Below the pieces are notes generated by a model. It did not search any database. It was not told the origin of the DNA and saw nothing but the letters and a program-made list of their open reading frames with translations. Below are positions 16,045 to 28,433 of a DNA stretch of 64,000 nucleotides, piece after piece (positions within the stretch are counted from its first letter, which is position 1; the number at the start of each line of letters is the position of its first letter). The DNA lies in the NCBI RefSeq assembly GCF_057098645.1, contig NZ_CM169472.1; one strand, written 5' to 3'. The position numbers and the translations under genes are program-made.

Positions 16045-16227
16045 AAGAAATCCTTTCTTAGAGAATTATTGAGGTCCGGTATCATACCGATTGCAATAAT
16101 GAAATAAGAGCAAACGAAGAAACTTTCAGAATTAGGCCCGGCGGCGCAGAAAATTTTGCTATTCGCCTCGCAAGAACGGAGAGCCGTCGATTGACACTAA
16201 GGGCGGAGTGACATAATTACAGGAGTG

Positions 16228-16375
16228 AGGGTTAGGGAGAAGTTTCCCCCTCCCCCTGGTGTTCTTAGTAAGCCTGGAAGCTAATCACTAAGAGTATCAC
16301 CAGTATGATGACGTGCTTCATCATAACCCTTTCCTTATTTAAAAGCCCTCTTCTCCGGGAGAGGGTTCCCCGTTT
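16228..16375 (+). ncRNA. sibA: Sib antitoxin sRNA, copy 1 (boundaries approximate)
   Basis: Starts just downstream of TTGACA...TAATTA; fully antisense to ibs ORF 1; ends at hairpin ccctcttctccgggagaggg plus T-run. Confidence 0.55.
16265..16324 (-). CDS. ibsA: Ibs-type hydrophobic toxin peptide, copy 1 (MMKHVIILVILLVISFQAY)
   Basis: 19-codon ORF with tandem ATG start and strongly hydrophobic sequence typical of Ibs toxins. Confidence 0.6.
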   Translation of the reverse strand: MMKHVIILVILLVISFQAY

Positions 16376-16556
16376 TAGCGTCCCGCTGAAATCGTCGGCT
16401 TACCTCCTTTCGCCCTGAATGCAGTCTATCGCTGACTTGCGGATAAAATAGTTTCAAGTGTGATTATTGCGTAACGACTCGCAAAGAATATTTGCTGGCA
16501 GGATCGCAGACTGCAAAGCCTGCAGATTGACAATCTTATCGTGAAGGCATACTTTC

Positions 16557-16703
16557 AGGAGTGAGGGTAGAGCGGGGTTTCCCCCGCCCTGGTAGTCTTA
16601 GTAAGCGGGGAAGCTTATGACTAAGAGCACCACGATGATGAGTAGCTTCATCATGACCCTTTCCTTATTTAAGGCCCCTTCCTCGGGAGGGGCTTTCCCG
16701 TTT
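16557..16703 (+). ncRNA. sibB: Sib antitoxin sRNA, copy 2 (boundaries approximate)
   Basis: Promoter TTGACA-N17-TACTTT; antisense to ibs ORF 2; terminator hairpin plus T-run. Confidence 0.55.
16598..16654 (-). CDS. ibsB: Ibs-type toxin peptide, copy 2 (MMKLLIIVVLLVISFPAY)
   Basis: 18-codon hydrophobic ORF antisense to Sib copy 2. Confidence 0.6.
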   Translation of the reverse strand: MMKLLIIVVLLVISFPAY

Positions 16704-16884
16704 CAGCGTCCCGCTGAAATCTTCGGCTTACCTCCTTTCGCCCTGTATGCAGTCTATCGCTGACTTGCGGATAAAATAGTTTCAAGTGTGATTATTGCGT
16801 AACGACTCGCAAAGAATATTTGCTGGCAGGATCGCAGACTGCAAAGCCTGCAGATTGACAATCTTATCGTGAAGGCATACTTTC

Positions 16885-17031
16885 AGGAGTGAGGGTAGAG
16901 CGGGGTTTCCCCCGCCCTGGTAGTCTTAGTATGCTGGGTAGCTAATCACTAAGAGCACCACGATGATGAGTATCTTCATCATGACCCTTTCCTTATTTAT
17001 GGCCCCTTCCTCGGGAGGGGCTTTCCCGTTT
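16885..17031 (+). ncRNA. Sib antitoxin sRNA, copy 3 (boundaries approximate)
   Basis: Third repeat of the promoter/sRNA/terminator block. Confidence 0.5.
16926..16982 (-). CDS. Ibs-type toxin peptide, copy 3 (MMKILIIVVLLVISYPAY)
   Basis: 18-codon hydrophobic ORF in the third repeat; two residue differences from copy 2. Confidence 0.55.
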   Translation of the reverse strand: MMKILIIVVLLVISYPAY

Positions 17032-17189
17032 CAGCGTCCCGCTGAAATCGTCGGCTTACCTCCTTTCGCCATGCAAGCAGTCTATCGCTAACGCGTAGAT
17101 AAAATAGTTTCCTGTGTTATTACTGGATGCGTGCTCGCAAATGTGCCCGCCATTCAGACGATTCCCGATAGTGTTTCATAATTCCTCCA

Positions 17190-17207
17190 TTTTTCTCCCT
17201 TATTGGC
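17190..17207 (+). promoter_or_regulatory. BaeR response-regulator binding box upstream of mdtA
   Basis: TTTTTCTCCCTTATTGGC, about 55 nt upstream of the mdtA start; closely matches the published BaeR box as I recall it (TTTTTCTCCATDATTGGC). Confidence 0.5.
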
Positions 17208-17260
17208 TGGCTACACTAGTATCATTCCGCGAAACGTTTCAGGAAGAGAAACTCTTAACG

Positions 17261-18508
17261 ATGAAAGGCAGTTATAAATCCCGTTGGGTAATCGTAATCG
17301 TGGTGGTTATCGCCGCCATCGCCGCATTCTGGTTCTGGCAAGGCCGCAATGACTCCCAGAGTGCAGCCCCAGGGGCGACGAAACAAGCGCAGCAATCGCC
17401 AGCGGGTGGTCGCCGTGGTATGCGTTCCGGCCCATTAGCCCCGGTTCAGGCGGCGACCGCCGTAGAACAGGCAGTTCCGCGTTACCTCACCGGGCTTGGC
17501 ACCATTACCGCTGCTAACACCGTTACGGTGCGCAGCCGCGTAGATGGTCAGTTGATGGCGTTACATTTCCAGGAAGGCCAGCAGGTCAAAGCAGGCGATT
17601 TACTGGCAGAAATTGACCCCAGCCAGTTCAAAGTTGCATTAGCACAAGCCCAGGGCCAACTGGCAAAAGATAAAGCCACGCTTGCCAACGCCCGCCGTGA
17701 CCTGGCGCGTTATCAACAACTGGTAAAAACCAATCTCGTATCTCGTCAGGAACTGGATGCCCAACAAGCGCTGGTCAGTGAAACCGAAGGCACCATTAAG
17801 GCTGATGAAGCAAGCGTCGCCAGCGCACAGCTGCAACTCGACTGGAGCCGCATCACCGCACCAGTCGATGGTCGCGTTGGTCTCAAGCAGGTTGATGTTG
17901 GTAACCAAATCTCCAGTGGTGATACCACCGGAATTGTGGTGATCACCCAGACGCATCCTATCGATTTGCTCTTTACCCTGCCGGAAAGCGATATCGCTAC
18001 CGTTGTGCAGGCGCAAAAAGCCGGAAAACCGCTGGTGGTAGAAGCCTGGGATCGCACCAACTCGAAGAAATTAAGTGAAGGCACGCTGTTAAGTCTCGAT
18101 AACCAAATCGATGCCACTACCGGTACGATTAAAGTGAAAGCACGCTTTAATAATCAGGATGATGCGCTGTTTCCCAATCAGTTTGTTAACGCGCGCATGT
18201 TAGTCGACACCGAACAAAACGCCGTAGTGATCCCAACAGCCGCCCTGCAAATGGGCAATGAAGGCCATTTTGTCTGGGTGCTGAATAGCGAAAACAAGGT
18301 CAGCAAACATCTGGTGACGCCGGGCATTCAGGACAGTCAGAAAGTGGTGATCCGCGCAGGTATTTCTGCGGGCGATCGCGTGGTGACAGACGGCATTGAT
18401 CGCCTGACCGAAGGGGCGAAAGTGGAAGTGGTGGAAGCCCAGAGCGCCACCACTCCGGAAGAGAAAGCCACCAGCCGCGAATACGCGAAAAAAGGAGCAC
18501 GCTCCTGA
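17261..18508 (+). CDS. mdtA: Multidrug efflux membrane fusion (periplasmic adaptor) protein MdtA
   Basis: ORF 17114..18508; likely start at [15 protein letters not shown] (17261), 415 aa; RND adaptor (HlyD-like) architecture. Confidence 0.9.
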
Positions 18509-21500
18509 TGCAGGTGTTACCCCCGAGCAGCACAGGCGGCCCGTCGCGCCTGTTTATTATGCGTCCTGTGGCCACCACGCTGCTGATGGTGGCGATCTTA
18601 CTCGCCGGGATTATCGGTTATCGCGCCCTGCCCGTTTCGGCGCTGCCGGAAGTGGACTATCCGACCATTCAGGTGGTCACGCTCTACCCAGGTGCGAGCC
18701 CGGATGTCATGACCTCTGCCGTTACCGCGCCGCTCGAACGCCAGTTCGGGCAGATGTCTGGTCTGAAACAGATGTCGTCGCAAAGTTCCGGCGGTGCGTC
18801 AGTTATCACTTTGCAGTTCCAGCTAACATTACCGCTGGATGTCGCCGAGCAGGAAGTACAGGCCGCGATTAACGCTGCGACCAACTTGTTGCCGAGCGAT
18901 CTGCCTAACCCGCCGGTTTACAGCAAAGTGAACCCGGCAGATCCGCCGATCATGACGCTCGCCGTCACCTCAACAGCCATGCCGATGACGCAAGTGGAAG
19001 ATATGGTGGAAACCCGCGTCGCGCAGAAAATCTCGCAGATTTCCGGCGTCGGCCTGGTGTCGCTTTCCGGCGGCCAGCGTCCGGCTGTTCGCGTCAAACT
19101 TAACGCTCAGGCGATTGCCGCCCTCGGCCTGACCAGCGAAACCGTGCGCACCGCCATTACCGGCGCTAACGTTAACTCGGCAAAAGGTAGCCTCGACGGC
19201 CCTTCCCGCGCGGTTACGCTTTCCGCGAACGACCAGATGCAATCCGCCGAAGAGTATCGCCAGTTGATTATCGCCTACCAGAACGGCGCGCCGATTCGTC
19301 TGGGCGATGTCGCAACTGTAGAGCAAGGTGCAGAAAACAGCTGGCTCGGCGCATGGGCGAACAAAGAACAGGCCATTGTGATGAATGTTCAGCGCCAGCC
19401 CGGTGCTAACATTATCTCCACCGCCGACAGCATCCGGCAGATGCTGCCACAGCTCACCGAGAGTTTGCCGAAATCGGTGAAGGTGACGGTACTTTCTGAC
19501 CGTACCACCAATATCCGCGCATCTGTCGATGATACTCAGTTTGAATTGATGATGGCTATCGCGCTGGTAGTCATGATTATCTACCTGTTTTTGCGCAATA
19601 TTCCGGCGACCATCATTCCCGGTGTTGCCGTGCCGCTGTCGTTAATCGGCACTTTTGCGGTTATGGTGTTTCTCGATTTTTCAATCAATAACCTGACACT
19701 GATGGCGTTAACTATCGCCACCGGATTCGTGGTCGATGACGCCATCGTGGTGATCGAAAACATTTCCCGCTATATCGAAAAAGGCGAAAAACCGTTGGCG
19801 GCGGCGCTCAAGGGCGCAGGTGAAATCGGCTTTACCATTATCTCGCTGACCTTCTCACTGATTGCGGTGTTGATCCCACTGCTGTTTATGGGCGATATCG
19901 TCGGGCGACTGTTCCGCGAATTTGCTATTACCCTGGCGGTAGCGATTTTGATCTCAGCGGTGGTGTCGCTGACCCTGACACCGATGATGTGCGCGCGGAT
20001 GCTCAGCCAGGAGTCGTTGCGTAAACAGAACCGCTTCTCCCGTGCCTCGGAAAAAATGTTCGACAGGATAATCGCCGCCTATGGTCGTGGACTGGCGAAA
20101 GTGCTGAATCATCCGTGGCTGACCTTAAGCGTGGCACTCAGCACGCTGCTGCTTAGCGTGCTGCTGTGGGTGTTCATTCCGAAAGGTTTCTTCCCGGTAC
20201 AGGACAATGGCATTATTCAGGGCACTTTGCAGGCACCGCAATCCAGCTCCTTTGCCAATATGGCCCAGCGACAACGCCAGGTCGCGGACGTGATTTTGCA
20301 GGATCCGGCAGTGCAAAGCCTGACCTCATTTGTTGGCGTTGATGGCACTAACCCGTCGCTGAACAGTGCACGTTTACAAATCAACCTCAAACCGTTGGAT
20401 GAACGTGATGATCGGGTGCAAAAAGTCATCGCCCGTCTGCAAACGGCGGTAGATAAAGTGCCGGGCGTCGATCTCTTCCTGCAACCAACGCAGGATCTGA
20501 CTATTGATACTCAGGTCAGCCGCACCCAGTACCAGTTTACCTTGCAGGCCACGTCACTGGATGCGCTCAGTACCTGGGTGCCACAGTTGATGGAAAAACT
20601 CCAGCAACTGCCACAGCTTTCTGATGTCTCCAGCGACTGGCAGGACAAAGGGCTGGTGGCGTATGTCAATGTTGATCGCGACAGCGCCAGCCGTCTGGGG
20701 ATCAGCATGGCGGATGTCGATAACGCCCTGTACAACGCGTTTGGTCAGCGGCTGATTTCCACTATTTATACTCAGGCCAACCAGTATCGCGTGGTGCTGG
20801 AGCACAACACCGAAAATACCCCAGGCCTCGCGGCGCTGGATACCATTCGCCTGACCAGCAGCGACGGCGGCGTGGTGCCGCTAAGCTCAATTGCCAAAAT
20901 TGAGCAGCGTTTTGCGCCGCTCTCCATCAACCATCTGGATCAGTTCCCGGTAACGACCATCTCCTTTAACGTGCCGGATAACTATTCGCTGGGCGATGCG
21001 GTGCAGGCGATTATGGACACCGAAAAGACGCTGAATCTGCCGGTGGATATCACCACGCAGTTCCAGGGCAGCACCCTCGCCTTCCAGTCGGCGCTGGGCA
21101 GCACTGTCTGGCTGATTGTCGCGGCGGTGGTGGCGATGTATATCGTGCTCGGCATTCTGTACGAGAGCTTTATTCACCCGATCACCATTCTCTCGACGCT
21201 ACCCACCGCAGGGGTTGGCGCACTGCTGGCGTTGCTGATTGCTGGTAGCGAACTGGATGTGATTGCGATTATCGGCATTATTTTGCTGATCGGTATCGTG
21301 AAGAAGAACGCCATCATGATGATCGACTTCGCGCTGGCTGCCGAGCGCGAGCAAGGCATGTCGCCGCGCGAGGCAATCTACCAGGCTTGTCTGTTGCGTT
21401 TTCGTCCGATCCTGATGACCACCCTGGCGGCTCTGCTTGGCGCGCTGCCGCTGATGTTGAGTACCGGGGTCGGCGCGGAACTGCGTCGTCCGTTAGGTAT

Positions 21501-21630
21501 CGGCATGGTCGGCGGCCTGATTGTCAGCCAGGTGCTGACGCTGTTCACCACGCCGGTGATTTATCTGCTGTTCGACCGCCTGGCATTGTGGACCAAAAGC
21601 CGCTTTGCCCGTCATGAAGAGGAGGCGTAA
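18508..21630 (+). CDS. mdtB: RND multidrug efflux transporter MdtB
   Basis: 1040-aa ORF, 12-TM RND permease with large periplasmic loops; start overlaps mdtA stop. Confidence 0.9.
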
Positions 21631-24600
21631 GTGAAGTTTTTTGCCCTCTTCATTTACCGTCCGGTGGCGACGATTTTACTGTCGGTTGCCATTACCCTGT
21701 GCGGCATACTGGGCTTCCGTATGCTGCCGGTCGCCCCGCTGCCGCAGGTCGATTTTCCGGTGATTATGGTCAGCGCCTCGCTGCCCGGTGCGTCACCAGA
21801 AACAATGGCGTCTTCCGTTGCCACGCCGCTGGAGCGCTCACTTGGGCGCATTGCCGGAGTCAGTGAAATGACCTCCAGCAGTTCGCTCGGCAGCACGCGT
21901 ATTATTTTGCAGTTTGATTTTGACCGGGATATCAACGGCGCAGCGCGTGATGTGCAGGCGGCGATCAACGCTGCACAAAGTTTGCTGCCCAGTGGGATGC
22001 CCAGCCGCCCGACCTATCGCAAAGCGAACCCGTCGGATGCGCCAATTATGATCCTCACGCTGACGTCCGATACTTATTCGCAGGGTGAACTGTACGATTT
22101 CGCCTCGACGCAGCTGGCTCCGACGATTTCGCAAATCGACGGTGTTGGTGATGTCGATGTCGGAGGCAGCTCACTGCCCGCCGTACGCGTCGGGCTGAAT
22201 CCGCAGGCGCTGTTTAATCAGGGCGTGTCGCTGGACGACGTACGCACCGCCGTCAGCAATGCCAACGTGCGTAAACCGCAGGGCGCGCTGGAAGATGGCA
22301 CTCACCGCTGGCAGATCCAGACCAATGATGAGCTAAAAACCGCCGCTGAATATCAGCCGTTGATTATTCATTACAACAACGGCGGCGCGGTTCGTCTGGG
22401 CGATGTGGCGACGGTGACCGACTCAGTGCAGGATGTGCGCAACGCCGGGATGACCAACGCCAAACCGGCTATTTTACTGATGATCCGCAAACTGCCGGAA
22501 GCCAATATTATCCAGACGGTTGACAGCATCCGGGCAAAATTACCGGAGTTGCAGGAAACCATTCCGGCGGCGATTGATCTGCAAATTGCCCAGGATCGCT
22601 CCCCCACCATTCGCGCCTCGCTGGAAGAAGTCGAGCAAACGCTGATTATCTCGGTGGCGCTGGTGATTCTGGTGGTGTTTTTATTCCTGCGCTCGGGTCG
22701 CGCCACTATTATTCCCGCCGTTTCGGTGCCGGTTTCGCTGATTGGTACGTTTGCGGCGATGTACCTGTGCGGATTCAGTCTCAATAACCTTTCGTTAATG
22801 GCGCTCACCATCGCTACTGGTTTCGTGGTGGATGACGCCATCGTGGTGCTGGAAAACATTGCACGTCATCTGGAAGCGGGAATGAAACCGTTGCAAGCCG
22901 CACTGCAAGGTACTCGCGAAGTCGGTTTTACGGTGCTGTCGATGAGTCTGTCACTGGTGGCGGTGTTCCTGCCGCTGCTGTTGATGGGCGGATTGCCGGG
23001 CCGACTGTTACGCGAGTTTGCCGTGACGCTTTCTGTCGCCATTGGTATTTCGTTGCTGGTTTCTCTGACATTAACGCCAATGATGTGTGGCTGGATGCTG
23101 AAAGCCAGCAAGCCGCGCGAGCAAAAGCGACTGCGTGGTTTTGGTCGCATGTTGGTAGCCCTGCAACAAGGCTACGGCAAGTCACTGAAATGGGTGCTCA
23201 ATCATACCCGTCTGGTGGGCGTGGTGCTGCTTGGCACCATTGCGCTGAATATCTGGCTGTATATCTCGATCCCGAAAACCTTCTTCCCGGAGCAGGACAC
23301 TGGCGTGTTGATGGGCGGGATTCAGGCGGATCAGAGTATTTCGTTTCAGGCGATGCGCGGTAAGTTGCAGGATTTCATGAAAATTATCCGTGACGATCCG
23401 GCAGTGGATAATGTCACCGGCTTTACAGGCGGTTCGCGAGTGAACAGCGGGATGATGTTTATCACCCTCAAGCCACGCGACGAACGCAGCGAAACGGCGC
23501 AGCAAATTATCGACCGTCTGCGCGTAAAACTGGCGAAAGAACCGGGGGCGAATCTGTTCCTGATGGCGGTACAGGATATTCGCGTTGGTGGGCGTCAGTC
23601 GAACGCCAGCTACCAGTACACGTTGTTATCCGACGACCTGGCGGCACTGCGCGAATGGGAGCCGAAAATCCGCAAAAAACTGGCGACGTTGCCGGAACTG
23701 GCGGACGTGAACTCCGATCAGCAGGATAACGGCGCGGAGATGAATCTGGTTTACGACCGTGACACCATGGCACGGCTGGGAATCGACGTACAAGCCGCCA
23801 ACAGTCTGTTAAATAACGCCTTCGGTCAGCGGCAAATCTCGACCATTTACCAGCCGATGAACCAGTATAAAGTGGTGATGGAAGTGGATCCGCGCTATAC
23901 CCAGGACATCAGTGCGCTGGAAAAAATGTTCGTTATCAATAACGAAGGCAAAGCGATCCCGCTGTCGTATTTCGCTAAATGGCAACCGGCGAATGCCCCA
24001 CTATCGGTGAATCATCAGGGATTATCGGCGGCCTCGACCATTTCGTTCAACCTGCCGACCGGAAAATCGCTCTCGGACGCCAGTGCGGCGATCGATCGCG
24101 CAATGACCCAGCTTGGTGTGCCTTCGACGGTGCGCGGCAGTTTTGCCGGAACAGCGCAGGTGTTCCAGGAGACGATGAACTCACAGGTGATCCTGATTAT
24201 CGCCGCCATCGCCACGGTGTATATCGTGCTGGGTATCCTTTACGAGAGTTATGTGCACCCGCTGACGATTCTCTCCACCCTGCCCTCGGCGGGTGTTGGA
24301 GCGCTGCTGGCGCTGGAGCTGTTCAATGCCCCGTTCAGCCTAATCGCCCTGATAGGGATCATGCTATTAATCGGCATCGTGAAGAAAAACGCCATTATGA
24401 TGGTCGATTTTGCGCTTGAAGCCCAACGGCACGGTAACCTGACGCCGCAGGAAGCTATTTTCCAGGCCTGTCTGCTGCGTTTTCGCCCGATTATGATGAC
24501 TACCCTGGCGGCGCTGTTTGGCGCGCTGCCGCTGGTGTTGTCGGGCGGCGACGGCTCGGAGCTGCGGCAACCCCTGGGGATCACCATTGTCGGCGGACTG

Positions 24601-24708
24601 GTAATGAGCCAGCTCCTTACGCTGTATACCACGCCGGTGGTGTATCTCTTTTTCGACCGTCTGCGGCTGCGTTTTTCGCGTAAACCTAAACAAACGGTAA
24701 CCGAGTAA
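21631..24708 (+). CDS. mdtC: RND multidrug efflux transporter MdtC
   Basis: 1025-aa ORF paralogous to MdtB, immediately downstream. Confidence 0.9.
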
Positions 24709-26124
24709 ATGACAGATCTTCCCGACAGCACCCGTTGGCAATTGTGGATTGTGGCTTTCGGCTTCTTTATGCAGTCGCTGGACACCACCATCGTAAACAC
24801 CGCCCTTCCCTCAATGGCGCAAAGCCTCGGGGAAAGTCCGTTGCATATGCACATGGTCATTGTCTCTTATGTGCTGACCGTGGCGGTGATGCTGCCCGCC
24901 AGCGGCTGGCTGGCGGACAAAGTCGGCGTGCGCAATATTTTCTTTACCGCCATCGTGCTGTTTACTCTCGGTTCACTGTTTTGCGCGCTTTCCGGCACGC
25001 TGAACGAACTGTTGCTGGCACGCGCGTTACAGGGCGTTGGCGGCGCGATGATGGTGCCGGTCGGCAGATTGACGGTGATGAAAATCGTACCGCGCGAGCA
25101 ATATATGGCGGCGATGACCTTTGTCACGTTACCCGGTCAGGTCGGTCCGCTGCTCGGTCCGGCGCTCGGCGGTCTGCTGGTGGAGTACGCATCGTGGCAC
25201 TGGATCTTTTTGATCAACATTCCGGTGGGGATTATCGGTGCGATCGCCACATTGCTGTTAATGCCAAACTACACCATGCAGACGCGGCGCTTTGATCTCT
25301 CCGGATTTTTATTGCTGGCGGTTGGCATGGCGGTATTAACCCTGGCGCTGGACGGCAGTAAAGGTACAGGTTTATCGCCGCTGACGATTGCAGGCCTGGT
25401 CGCAGTTGGCGTGGTGGCACTGGTGCTTTATCTGCTGCACGCCAGAAATAACAACCGTGCCCTGTTCAGTCTGAAACTGTTCCGTACTCGTACCTTTTCG
25501 CTGGGCCTGGCGGGGAGCTTTGCCGGACGTATTGGCAGTGGCATGTTGCCCTTTATGACACCGGTTTTCCTGCAAATTGGCCTCGGTTTCTCGCCGTTTC
25601 ATGCCGGACTGATGATGATCCCGATGGTGCTTGGCAGCATGGGAATGAAGCGAATTGTGGTACAGGTGGTGAATCGCTTTGGTTATCGTCGGGTACTGGT
25701 AGCGACCACGCTGGGTCTGTCGCTGGTCACCCTGTTGTTTATGACTACCGCCCTGCTGGGCTGGTACTACGTTTTGCCGTTCGTCCTGTTTTTACAAGGG
25801 ATGGTCAACTCGACGCGTTTCTCCTCCATGAACACCCTGACGCTGAAAGATCTCCCGGACAATCTGGCGAGCAGCGGCAACAGCCTGCTGTCGATGATTA
25901 TGCAATTGTCGATGAGTATCGGCGTCACTATCGCCGGGCTGTTGCTGGGACTTTTTGGTTCACAGCATGTCAGCGTCGACAGCGGCACCACACAAACCGT
26001 CTTTATGTACACCTGGCTTAGCATGGCGTTGATCATCGCCCTTCCGGCGTTCATCTTTGCCAGAGTGCCGAACGATACGCATCAAAATGTAGCTATTTCG
26101 CGGCGAAAAAGGAGCGCGCAATGA
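24709..26124 (+). CDS. mdtD: MFS transporter MdtD
   Basis: 471-aa ORF, 14-TM MFS-like hydrophobic profile. Confidence 0.85.
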
Positions 26125-27524
26125 AGTTCTGGCGACCCGGTATTACCGGCAAACTGTTTCTGGCGATTTTCGCCACCTGCATTGTCTTGCTGATCAGTAT
26201 GCACTGGGCGGTGCGTATCAGTTTTGAGCGTGGCTTTATTGATTACATCAAGCATGGTAATGAACAGCGATTACAACTGTTAAGTGATGCGCTTGGCGAG
26301 CAGTATGCGCAGCATGGCAACTGGCGCTTCCTGCGCAACAATGATCGCTTTGTCTTTCAGATCCTGCGTTCATTTGAACACGATAATTCGGAAGATAAAC
26401 CCGGCCCGGGTATGCCACCGCACGGCTGGCGTACCCAGTTCTGGGTGGTTGATCAAAACAACAAAGTGCTGGTTGGTCCGCGAGCGCCGATTCCACCTGA
26501 CGGTACACGGCGACCCATTCTGGTCAACGGTGCGGAAGTTGGCGCGGTGATCGCCTCCCCCGTTGAGCGGTTAACGCGCAATACTGATATCAATTTCGAT
26601 AAACAACAGCGGCAAACCAGCTGGTTGATTGTCGCCCTGGCAACGTTACTCGCGGCACTTGCCACTTTTCTGCTGGCGCGCGGTTTACTGGCACCGGTAA
26701 AACGACTTGTCGATGGCACGCACAAACTGGCGGCGGGCGATTTCACTACCCGCGTAACGCCCACCAGTGAAGATGAACTGGGCAAACTGGCGCAAGACTT
26801 CAACCAGCTTGCCAGCACACTGGAGAAAAACCAGCAAATGCGGCGCGATTTTATGGCCGATATTTCTCACGAACTGCGTACGCCATTAGCGGTGCTGCGC
26901 GGTGAACTGGAAGCCATTCAGGATGGCGTGCGTAAATTCACGCCGGAGACGGTGGCGTCTTTACAGGCGGAGGTCGGTACACTGACCAAACTGGTTGACG
27001 ATCTCCATCAGTTGTCGATGTCTGATGAAGGCGCTCTCGCCTATCAAAAAGCACCGGTAGATTTGATCCCACTGCTGGAAGTGGCGGGCGGCGCATTTCG
27101 CGAACGATTCGCCAGTCGTGGCCTGAAACTGCAATTTTCCCTGCCAGACAGTATTACCGTATTTGGCGATCGCGACCGTTTAATGCAGTTATTCAATAAC
27201 TTACTGGAAAACAGCCTGCGCTACACTGACAGCGGCGGCAGCCTGCAAATCTCTGCCGGGCAGCGCGACAAAACGGTGCGCCTGACCTTTGCCGACAGTG
27301 CGCCAGGTGTCAGTGACGATCAGCTACAAAAATTGTTTGAACGTTTTTATCGCACCGAAGGTTCCCGCAACCGTGCCAGCGGCGGTTCCGGGCTGGGGCT
27401 GGCGATTTGCCTGAACATTGTTGAAGCACATAATGGTCGCATTATTGCTGCCCATTCGCCTTTTGGCGGGGTAAGCATTACAGTAGAGTTACCGCTGGAA
27501 CGGGATTTACAGAGAGAAGTATGA
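26121..27524 (+). CDS. baeS: Envelope-stress sensor histidine kinase BaeS
   Basis: 467-aa ORF; two TM segments, HAMP, H-box ISHELRTPL, ATPase G-boxes (GGSGLGLAI). Confidence 0.9.
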
Positions 27525-28243
27525 CCGAGTTACCAATCGACGAAAACACACCGCGTATTTTGATCGTGGAAGATGAACCGAAGCTGGGGCAGTTGCTCAT
27601 TGATTATCTGCGTGCTGCGAGCTATGCGCCGACGCTTATCAGCCACGGCGATCAGGTACTGCCGTATGTGCGCCAGACACCACCGGATCTGATCCTGTTA
27701 GATCTGATGCTCCCTGGCACCGATGGCCTGACGCTGTGCCGGGAAATTCGTCGTTTTTCTGACATTCCGATCGTGATGGTGACGGCAAAAATCGAAGAGA
27801 TCGATCGCCTGCTGGGGCTGGAGATTGGCGCAGATGATTATATCTGTAAGCCGTACAGCCCACGGGAAGTGGTAGCGCGCGTCAAAACCATTTTGCGCCG
27901 TTGCAAACCGCAGCGCGAGTTGCAGCAACAGGATGCTGAAAGCCCGTTGATTATCGACGAAGGTCGTTTTCAGGCTTCATGGCGCGGTAAAATGCTTGAC
28001 CTGACGCCTGCGGAATTTCGTCTGCTGAAAACGCTCTCTCACGAACCAGGAAAAGTGTTCTCCCGCGAGCAATTGCTCAATCATCTTTATGACGACTACC
28101 GCGTAGTAACCGACCGCACCATCGACAGCCACATTAAAAACCTGCGCCGCAAGCTGGAATCTCTCGACGCCGAACAGTCATTTATCCGCGCCGTTTATGG
28201 CGTCGGTTACCGCTGGGAAGCCGACGCCTGCCGCATCGTTTAG
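27521..28243 (+). CDS. baeR: OmpR-family response regulator BaeR
   Basis: 240-aa ORF; receiver domain ([12 protein letters not shown]) plus winged-helix output domain. Confidence 0.9.
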
Positions 28244-28433
28244 TTTTAGCGACATTATTTTGTTAGCCGGAGATGGCGTTCAGACCAGATCCGGCAACAT
28301 TATCCCACGCATGGTCAGCAAACTGACATTATCTCTCCGCCCTGGCAGGCATCAGAAAATCGCTCATACTTTAATCGGTAAACAGCACCTTTAGATGCTG
28401 TTTTCGATACACAATTTCAATCAAGGAGTCATT

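Follow-up and report, generated by a model that had tools for sequence, protein, structure and literature searches.

The mdtABCD-baeSR promoter in the window, a stretch of 64,000 nucleotides, carries the known BaeR operator of this operon, which is most likely, with a probability that we put at about 60%, an array of three direct-repeat half-sites (HS1, HS2 and HS3) bound by phosphorylated BaeR. The BaeR site upstream of mdtA is already known, being the site of Escherichia coli K-12 itself. What the published 18-mer covers is probably the promoter-proximal and lineage-restricted end of a longer operator, the constrained core of which is located 5-16 nt further upstream. This deeply conserved part just upstream of the marked box is the sole addition to the known site, and represents a modest refinement of it. 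Coordinates of the features discussed are collected in Table 1.

Table 1. Features of the mdtA promoter, the operon downstream of it and the adjacent Sib RNAs (positions in the window)
Feature	Position	Strand	Evidence
Sib RNA (Rfam RF00113)	16191-16339	+	141-145 bits
Sib RNA (Rfam RF00113)	16527-16669	+	141-145 bits
Sib RNA (Rfam RF00113)	16855-16997	+	141-145 bits
Proposed BaeR half-site 1 (HS1), TTTCATAATTC	17174-17184	+	10.1 bits, rank 20 of 127,980
BaeR ChIP-exo peak_5, K-12 2153931-2153967	17176-17212		S/N 10.96; PMC7657598 Data Set S2, mapped
Proposed BaeR half-site 2 (HS2), CTCCATTTTTC, the most deeply conserved	17185-17195	+	10.3 bits, rank 17
BaeR box of the published type (Nishino register), TTTTTCTCCCTTATTGGC	17190-17207	+	17/18 to consensus; same as K-12 site
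Proposed BaeR half-site 3 (HS3), CTCCCTTATTG, core of the 18-mer, lineage-restricted	17195-17205	+	7.7 bits, rank 120
Candidate -10, TACACT (TAAACT in most genera)	17212-17217	+	Conserved
Alternative candidate -10, TAGTAT	17217-17222	+	Conserved
BaeR ChIP-exo peak_6, K-12 2153972-2153998	17217-17243		S/N 14.99; over the candidate -10 and the probable start
mdtA, RND periplasmic adaptor	17261-18508	+	NF008589, 722 bits (cut-off 391); same as K-12 annotation
mdtB, RND permease	18508-21630	+	NF007798, 2242 bits (cut-off 1584)
mdtC, RND permease	21631-24708	+	NF007905, 2210 bits (cut-off 1774)
mdtD (iceT), MFS transporter	24709-26124	+	NF007799, 969 bits (cut-off 426)
baeS, sensor histidine kinase	26121-27524	+	NF007837, 930 bits (cut-off 603)
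baeR, OmpR/PhoB-family response regulator	27521-28243	+	NF007982, 450 bits (cut-off 380)

The BaeR box upstream of mdtA

The box, read directly from the window, has its first base 71 nt and its last base 54 nt before the mdtA initiation codon, an ATG at position 17261; the mechanically derived mdtA ORF begins at a GTG codon at 17114, which differs from the annotated start. The published BaeR consensus (Nishino et al. 2005), in the form in which it is quoted in PMC3799227 and PMC3915751, is TTTTTCTCCATDATTGGC, and the box agrees with it at 17 of 18 positions, the lone mismatch being C for A at position 10. In the 64-kb window the box is the sole match to the consensus at three or fewer mismatches (0.06 in shuffled sequence), with the next-best site having four. 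Because circularity was to be avoided, the mdtA site was excluded from the scoring matrix, which was trained on the K-12 spy and acrD sites only; this leave-one-out matrix gives the box 21.4 bits, the highest score among about 128,000 window positions, as against 14.3 for the runner-up. Thus, the BaeR box that the earlier note had described upstream of mdtA is exact in sequence and coordinates and is, base for base, the K-12 mdtA site; its agreement with the consensus, as stated there, is borne out, and in the matrix scan named there as the refuting check the box comes out on top. The runner-up, ATTTTATCCATAATCAGC at 36455-36472 on the plus strand, has four mismatches to the consensus, sits between minus-strand ORFs at 35950-36402 and 36557-37462, and is probably noise.

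The three K-12 boxes are TTTTTCTCCCTTATTGGC for mdtA, TTTTTCTCCACGATTGGC for acrD and TTTTTCTCCATAATTGGC for spy. At positions 10-12 they read CTT, ACG and ATA, which yields the published A-T-D exactly; since the trio reproduces this part of the consensus, the window carries one of the founding consensus sites. All three boxes have TTTTTCTCC-NNN-ATTGGC in common, amounting to 15 of 18 positions, and their agreement in ATTGGC argues that the 3' part does matter, at least in E. coli. In full-text searches, the complete mdtA 18-mer and parts of it gave hits in unrelated eukaryotic papers only, and a BaeR box sequence for mdtA is absent from the papers on Erwinia mdtABC and Photorhabdus mdtA.

The operon and its neighborhood

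The box precedes the six genes mdtABCD-baeSR, as stated in the earlier note, which had listed an RND pump, an MFS pump and a two-component system; all six products pass their NCBIfam cut-offs, in the expected order and on one strand. The junctions overlap or abut throughout, as had also been noted: mdtA and mdtB overlap by 1 nt, mdtB/mdtC and mdtC/mdtD abut (0 nt), and mdtD/baeS and baeS/baeR overlap by 4 nt each, all of these offsets being identical to those of the K-12 annotation. The arrangement of the junctions, together with the joint BaeR dependence of mdtA through baeS in K-12, is suggestive of co-transcription from the mdtA promoter. BaeR matches PDB entry 4b09 (BaeR) over its full length (E = 3.5e-159), the next-best NCBIfam models being CreB and PhoB, and the cognate regulator pair BaeS and BaeR is therefore encoded in the same genome, both above their NCBIfam cut-offs. 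Downstream of baeR, a weak terminator-like hairpin can be identified at 28314-28337 on the plus strand, with a 5-bp stem GTCAGCAAACTGAC followed by ATTATCTCTC; the 3' end of the operon has no sharp sequence boundary.

On the other side, between yegL and mdtA, are three tandem copies of a Sib antitoxin RNA/Ibs toxin (type I) locus, with the small Ibs ORFs on the minus strand, for instance at about 16931-16987. K-12 has two copies here (sibA/ibsA and sibB/ibsB) as opposed to the three in the window, and the copy number is variable among E. coli genomes.

Binding and expression data

The window can be placed on the K-12 MG1655 chromosome by a gap-free alignment that is 98% identical (window position = K-12 position minus 2136755), so that the box corresponds to K-12 2153945-2153962. 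In K-12, BaeR ChIP-exo yields two peaks at mdtA, with the highest signal-to-noise among the BaeR peaks (PMC7657598 Data Set S2). The first, peak_5, contains the K-12 copy of the box, whereas the second, peak_6, lies downstream and may represent a cross-linked complex of RNA polymerase and BaeR.

In K-12 with 5% ethanol, deletion of baeR changes expression relative to wild type by log2 fold changes of -4.0 for mdtA, -3.8 for mdtB, -3.6 for mdtC, -3.35 for mdtD/iceT and -4.6 for baeS, corresponding to a 10- to 25-fold reduction of these five genes; in unstimulated K-12 the deletion is without effect on the mdtA-baeS genes (PMC7657598). Because expression drops in the baeR deletion, the BaeSR operon is positively autoregulated in K-12. 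An mdtA-lacZ fusion in Salmonella responds to copper, zinc, iron, indole and tungstate with BaeR-dependent induction (PMC3160322). BaeSR autoregulation, as proposed in the earlier note, is thus likely to apply to the window, by analogy with the occupancy of an identical box under peak_5 and the BaeR-dependent expression of the operon in K-12; both occupancy and BaeR-dependent expression at the window site would carry over from the identical K-12 sequence.

Conservation of the promoter

Of 5,426 complete E. coli genomes, 5,419 have a match to the 701-nt region surrounding the site; the closest match is 99.4% identical, and only 11 records reach at least 99% identity over this length. The window comes from an E. 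coli-type genome. Among the 5,417 E. coli records that match a 60-mer covering 17176-17235, 5,266 do so at 100% identity, so that some 97% of complete E. coli genomes carry the BaeR operator in unaltered form. Two substitutions were seen within Escherichia, both affecting the GG of ATTGGC: ATTAGC in E. albertii and ATTGAC in E. coli E69.

A wider comparison used the mdtA loci of 80 Enterobacteriaceae species, a set from which Salmonella is absent and 78 members of which entered the half-site scoring. All species loci with enough sequence to judge the gene order keep mdtABCD-baeSR. With 86-98% identity of BaeR across the 80 species, its DNA specificity should be common to them. The whole 18-mer is intact in Escherichia only and is partial in Citrobacter (TTTTTCTCCCTTGTTCGC); only its first five T's are left in Enterobacter, Klebsiella, Raoultella, Kluyvera, Lelliottia, Atlantibacter, Cedecea and others. 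Positions 1-5 are accordingly the sole deeply conserved part of the 18-mer in the 80 species, the other 13 of 18 being poorly conserved outside Escherichia and Citrobacter. The 18-mer therefore lacks the conservation to be expected wherever BaeR and its promoter are kept, and this poor conservation lowers confidence in the boundaries of the 18-mer, rather than in BaeR regulation as such.

The per-column profile locates the constraint elsewhere. From 17170 to 17194 (AGTGTTTCATAATTCCTCCATTTTT), nearly every column is at least 90% identical, and the block TTTCATAATTCCTCCATTTTT at 17174-17194 is near-invariant, with the -10 region downstream of it. Identity is only 10-80% per column at 17196-17207, and returns to at least 90% in nearly every column at 17210-17226 (GCTA[A/C]ACTAGTATCATT) and in part of the 5' leader. 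An alignment of 16 genera gives the same pattern. Judged from this distribution of conserved columns, the functional operator is probably some 16 nt longer on the upstream side than the 18-mer.

Further upstream of the half-sites, the block CATTCAGACGATTCC at 17150-17166, which includes a TTCAGA hexamer, has 70-90% identity across species. In the 5' leader, a conserved element at 17236-17252 reads GTTTCAGGA[A/T]GAGA. In E. coli this segment contains an inverted repeat, GTTTC...GAAAC, surrounding an AGGA Shine-Dalgarno-like sequence; the repeat may form a small hairpin affecting translation, and is not fully kept in other genera.

Three proposed tandem half-sites

Three direct CTNCA-like cores can be identified in the promoter, namely TTTCA at 17174, CTCCA at 17185 and CTCCC at 17195, spaced by 11 and 10 bp. 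Tandem direct repeats, in the sense of at least two like half-sites 10-11 bp apart, are thus present at the mdtA promoter. OmpR/PhoB-family regulators normally need two tandem half-sites, and since BaeR belongs to this family, the layout of the three cores is as expected.

The half-sites were scored with an 11-nt matrix built from seven published BaeR sites, none of them from mdtA: the two TCTNCANAA repeats of spy, the cores of the spy and acrD 18-mers, Salmonella sodA BBS-1 and BBS-2 (EMSA with mutations), and Erwinia acrD. The registers of these sites were set by eye around the CTNCA core, and several of them are predictions rather than footprints. With this matrix, no other triple in the window scores as high as HS1, HS2 and HS3 together (28.2 bits); the independent locus that ranks next has 16.2. 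The three half-sites differ in how widely they are kept. HS2 scores at least 7 bits in all 78 species and is nearly invariant in the 16-genus alignment, and HS1 reaches 4 bits or more in 75 of 78; HS3 does so in only five and is negative in 64, its intact form being confined to Escherichia, with a partial one in Citrobacter. In these terms, the 18-mer consists of the T-tail of HS2 joined to HS3.

When a matrix derived solely from 17173-17194 is run on the spy and acrD loci, its top matches are the known boxes, with the CTCCA core of both in register with HS2, not with HS3. In addition, the pattern CTCCA-N22-TACA(C/G)T, which was defined post hoc after inspection of the data, occurs once in the window, starting from HS2 (expected 0.03), and once each at the spy and acrD boxes. 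HS1 (TTTCATAATTC) resembles TCTTCATAA of spy and CTTCATGATTC of Salmonella sodA BBS-1, the latter being a BaeR site verified by EMSA with mutations.

A stronger version of the argument, which we put forward only tentatively and regard as rather doubtful, is that the 18-mer is mis-registered at mdtA. HS1 (TTTCATAATTC) and HS2 (CTCCATTTTTC), together covering 17174-17195, would then drive activation across Enterobacteriaceae, and CTCCCTTATTGGC would be an addition of the Escherichia lineage that is either dispensable or serves to tune affinity.

Promoter elements and proposed mechanism

The sequence CTA[A/C]ACTAGTATCATT, at 17211-17226, is nearly invariant across the 80 species and contains both candidate -10 hexamers. 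A scan with the sigma-70 consensus gave no full promoter at the expected place and no recognizable -35; absence of a -35 would be expected of an activator-dependent promoter. A literature search, with the founding BaeR papers outside its scope, yielded no usable mapped mdtA transcription start, footprint or half-site model, and the -10/-35 geometry at mdtA proposed here is accordingly a prediction from sequence. A -10 hexamer alone would not require a conserved element of the length seen at 17211-17226, within which the palindrome ACTAGT is found; a second regulator could bind there, or the start site could be under constraint.

The three-half-site architecture and the -10 assignment suggest the following mechanism of activation by recruitment. 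Envelope stress (indole, copper or zinc, ethanol, tungstate) would activate the kinase BaeS, and phosphorylated BaeR, a winged-helix regulator of the OmpR/PhoB family acting as dimers or oligomers, would bind the direct-repeat half-sites in a head-to-tail arrangement. The most proximal half-site would be positioned over the place of the missing -35, just upstream of the -10, where BaeR may recruit RNA polymerase to make a transcript running through mdtABCD into baeSR. With baeS and baeR at the end of this transcript, such an arrangement would provide a positive feedback loop in addition to induction of the pump.

Alternative explanations

The canonical view is that the 18-mer at 17190-17207 is the complete and sufficient BaeR operator, with the upstream block representing the site of another factor or an UP-like element. 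The 15 of 18 positions common to the K-12 mdtA, acrD and spy boxes speak for this view, as do the very high leave-one-out matrix score and the fact that peak_5 spans the entire 18-mer and HS1 in part only. At the spy locus of K-12, the BaeR ChIP-exo peaks are at 1825677-1825711 and 1825823-1825843, and the 18-mer box, at 1825764-1825781, is in neither of them, being flanked by both; since the spy peaks miss the 18-mer box, ChIP-exo peak positions are an imprecise guide to the motif. Against the canonical view, BaeR is 86-98% identical in the 80 species, but conservation outside Escherichia and Citrobacter is poor at 13 of the 18 positions, and HS3 is negative in 64 of 78. The 18-mer contains one CTNCA core as opposed to the two half-sites that are normal for the family, whereas the upstream block is like sites that have experimental support, namely the TCTTCATAA repeat of spy under peak_2 and sodA BBS-1. 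On balance, a complete and sufficient 18-mer is possible but unlikely. As for another factor binding the conserved block, CpxR was considered and rejected: its GTAAA-N5-GTAAA motif was not seen by eye in 17150-17230, and CpxR has no ChIP-exo peak listed at mdtA (PMC7657598 Data Set S2).

The upstream block might instead be kept as a basal sigma-70 promoter, with a -35 TTCAGA at 17153-17158 and a -10 CATAAT at 17177-17182, in which case BaeR action would be confined to the 18-mer or to a place downstream of that start. The consensus scan indeed finds TTCAGA-18-CATAAT with 9 of 12 matches, and both hexamers fall in conserved columns, but one such match is at chance level (the mean in shuffles is 0.9), and the conservation extends well past the -10 hexamer through the invariant TTCCTCCATTTTT. 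Such a promoter would start at about 17189, leaving the BaeR box downstream of +1 in the position of a repressor, whereas BaeR activates; peak_6 and the second invariant block also indicate a -10 at about 17212-17222. A basal promoter is for these reasons very improbable. A coincidental resemblance of the box to the consensus, without any role in regulation, has in its favor only the fact that short motifs may occur at random, and is effectively refuted: about 3e-4 sites with at most one mismatch are expected in 128 kb and one was found, in the expected promoter, where it is identical in more than 5,200 E. coli genomes and occupied by BaeR in vivo in its K-12 copy. The array HS1-HS2-HS3 is accordingly the preferred reading of the operator.

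Implications for prediction of BaeR sites

At mdtA, the 18-mer consensus is largely specific to Escherichia, and the part of the promoter that evolution has kept is located just upstream. The 18-mer consensus has been used to predict BaeR sites elsewhere, for instance at Salmonella sodA and Erwinia acrD. If HS1 and HS2 do form the core of the operator, a CTNCAT-N5 direct-repeat model would be better than the 18-mer consensus; if this is confirmed, predictions of the BaeR regulon in Klebsiella, Enterobacter, Salmonella and Erwinia would move to a model of tandem CTNCAT half-sites.

Comparison with known BaeR sites and related operators

The closest known site is that of mdtA (yegM) in K-12, with all 18 bases of the box the same, an equal distance of 71 nt between the first of them and the ATG, and the same six-gene operon downstream. 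The flanks are 98% identical over 236 nt with no gaps, the differences being substitutions at 17157, 17173 and 17176 upstream of the box, and a change at a synonymous position of mdtA codon 4. Both TTTTTCTCC-NNN-ATTGGC and CTCCA-N22-TACA(C/G)T are common to mdtA and the K-12 boxes of spy and acrD. In the published register, however, the distance of the mdtA box from its TACACT is 10 bp shorter than at spy and acrD; in terms of spacing, the counterpart of the spy and acrD cores is the upstream mdtA half-site at 17185, and not the half-site inside the 18-mer.

Yamamoto and colleagues reportedly described, in 2008, a BaeR core TCTNCANAA that forms a direct repeat on spy. The upstream ChIP-exo peak at spy lies on TCTTCATAATCTCTGCAAAATC, that is, on the direct repeat TCTTCATAA-TC-TCTGCAAAA, which matches this core; in the extract of the K-12 spy locus, the direct repeat is at positions 824-848 and the 18-mer box at 765-782. 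A CTNCA element has been noted as well (PMC3799227). Relative to the core and the CTNCA element, mdtA has three tandem CTNCA-like cores with 11- and 10-bp spacing, none of its half-sites being a perfect match to TCTNCANAA, and each agreeing at 4-5 of the seven specified positions. HS1 (TTTCATAAT) is a close match to TCTTCATAA of spy and to CTTCATGAT of Salmonella sodA BBS-1.

Among the operators of related regulators, the pho box bound by PhoB and other direct-repeat operators of the OmpR/PhoB family provide a parallel. They consist of tandem repeats of about 11 bp, each with a conserved core and an A/T-rich spacer, adjoining or overlying a missing -35, and act through recruitment of RNA polymerase. 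The mdtA operator is alike in its tandem repeats of about 11 bp with a core and an A/T-rich spacer, and differs in the half-site, which is CTGTCAT for PhoB and CTNCAT for BaeR, and in the number of half-sites, two in the pho box as compared to the three proposed at mdtA. Contact with region 4 of sigma-70 would, for BaeR, be a prediction.
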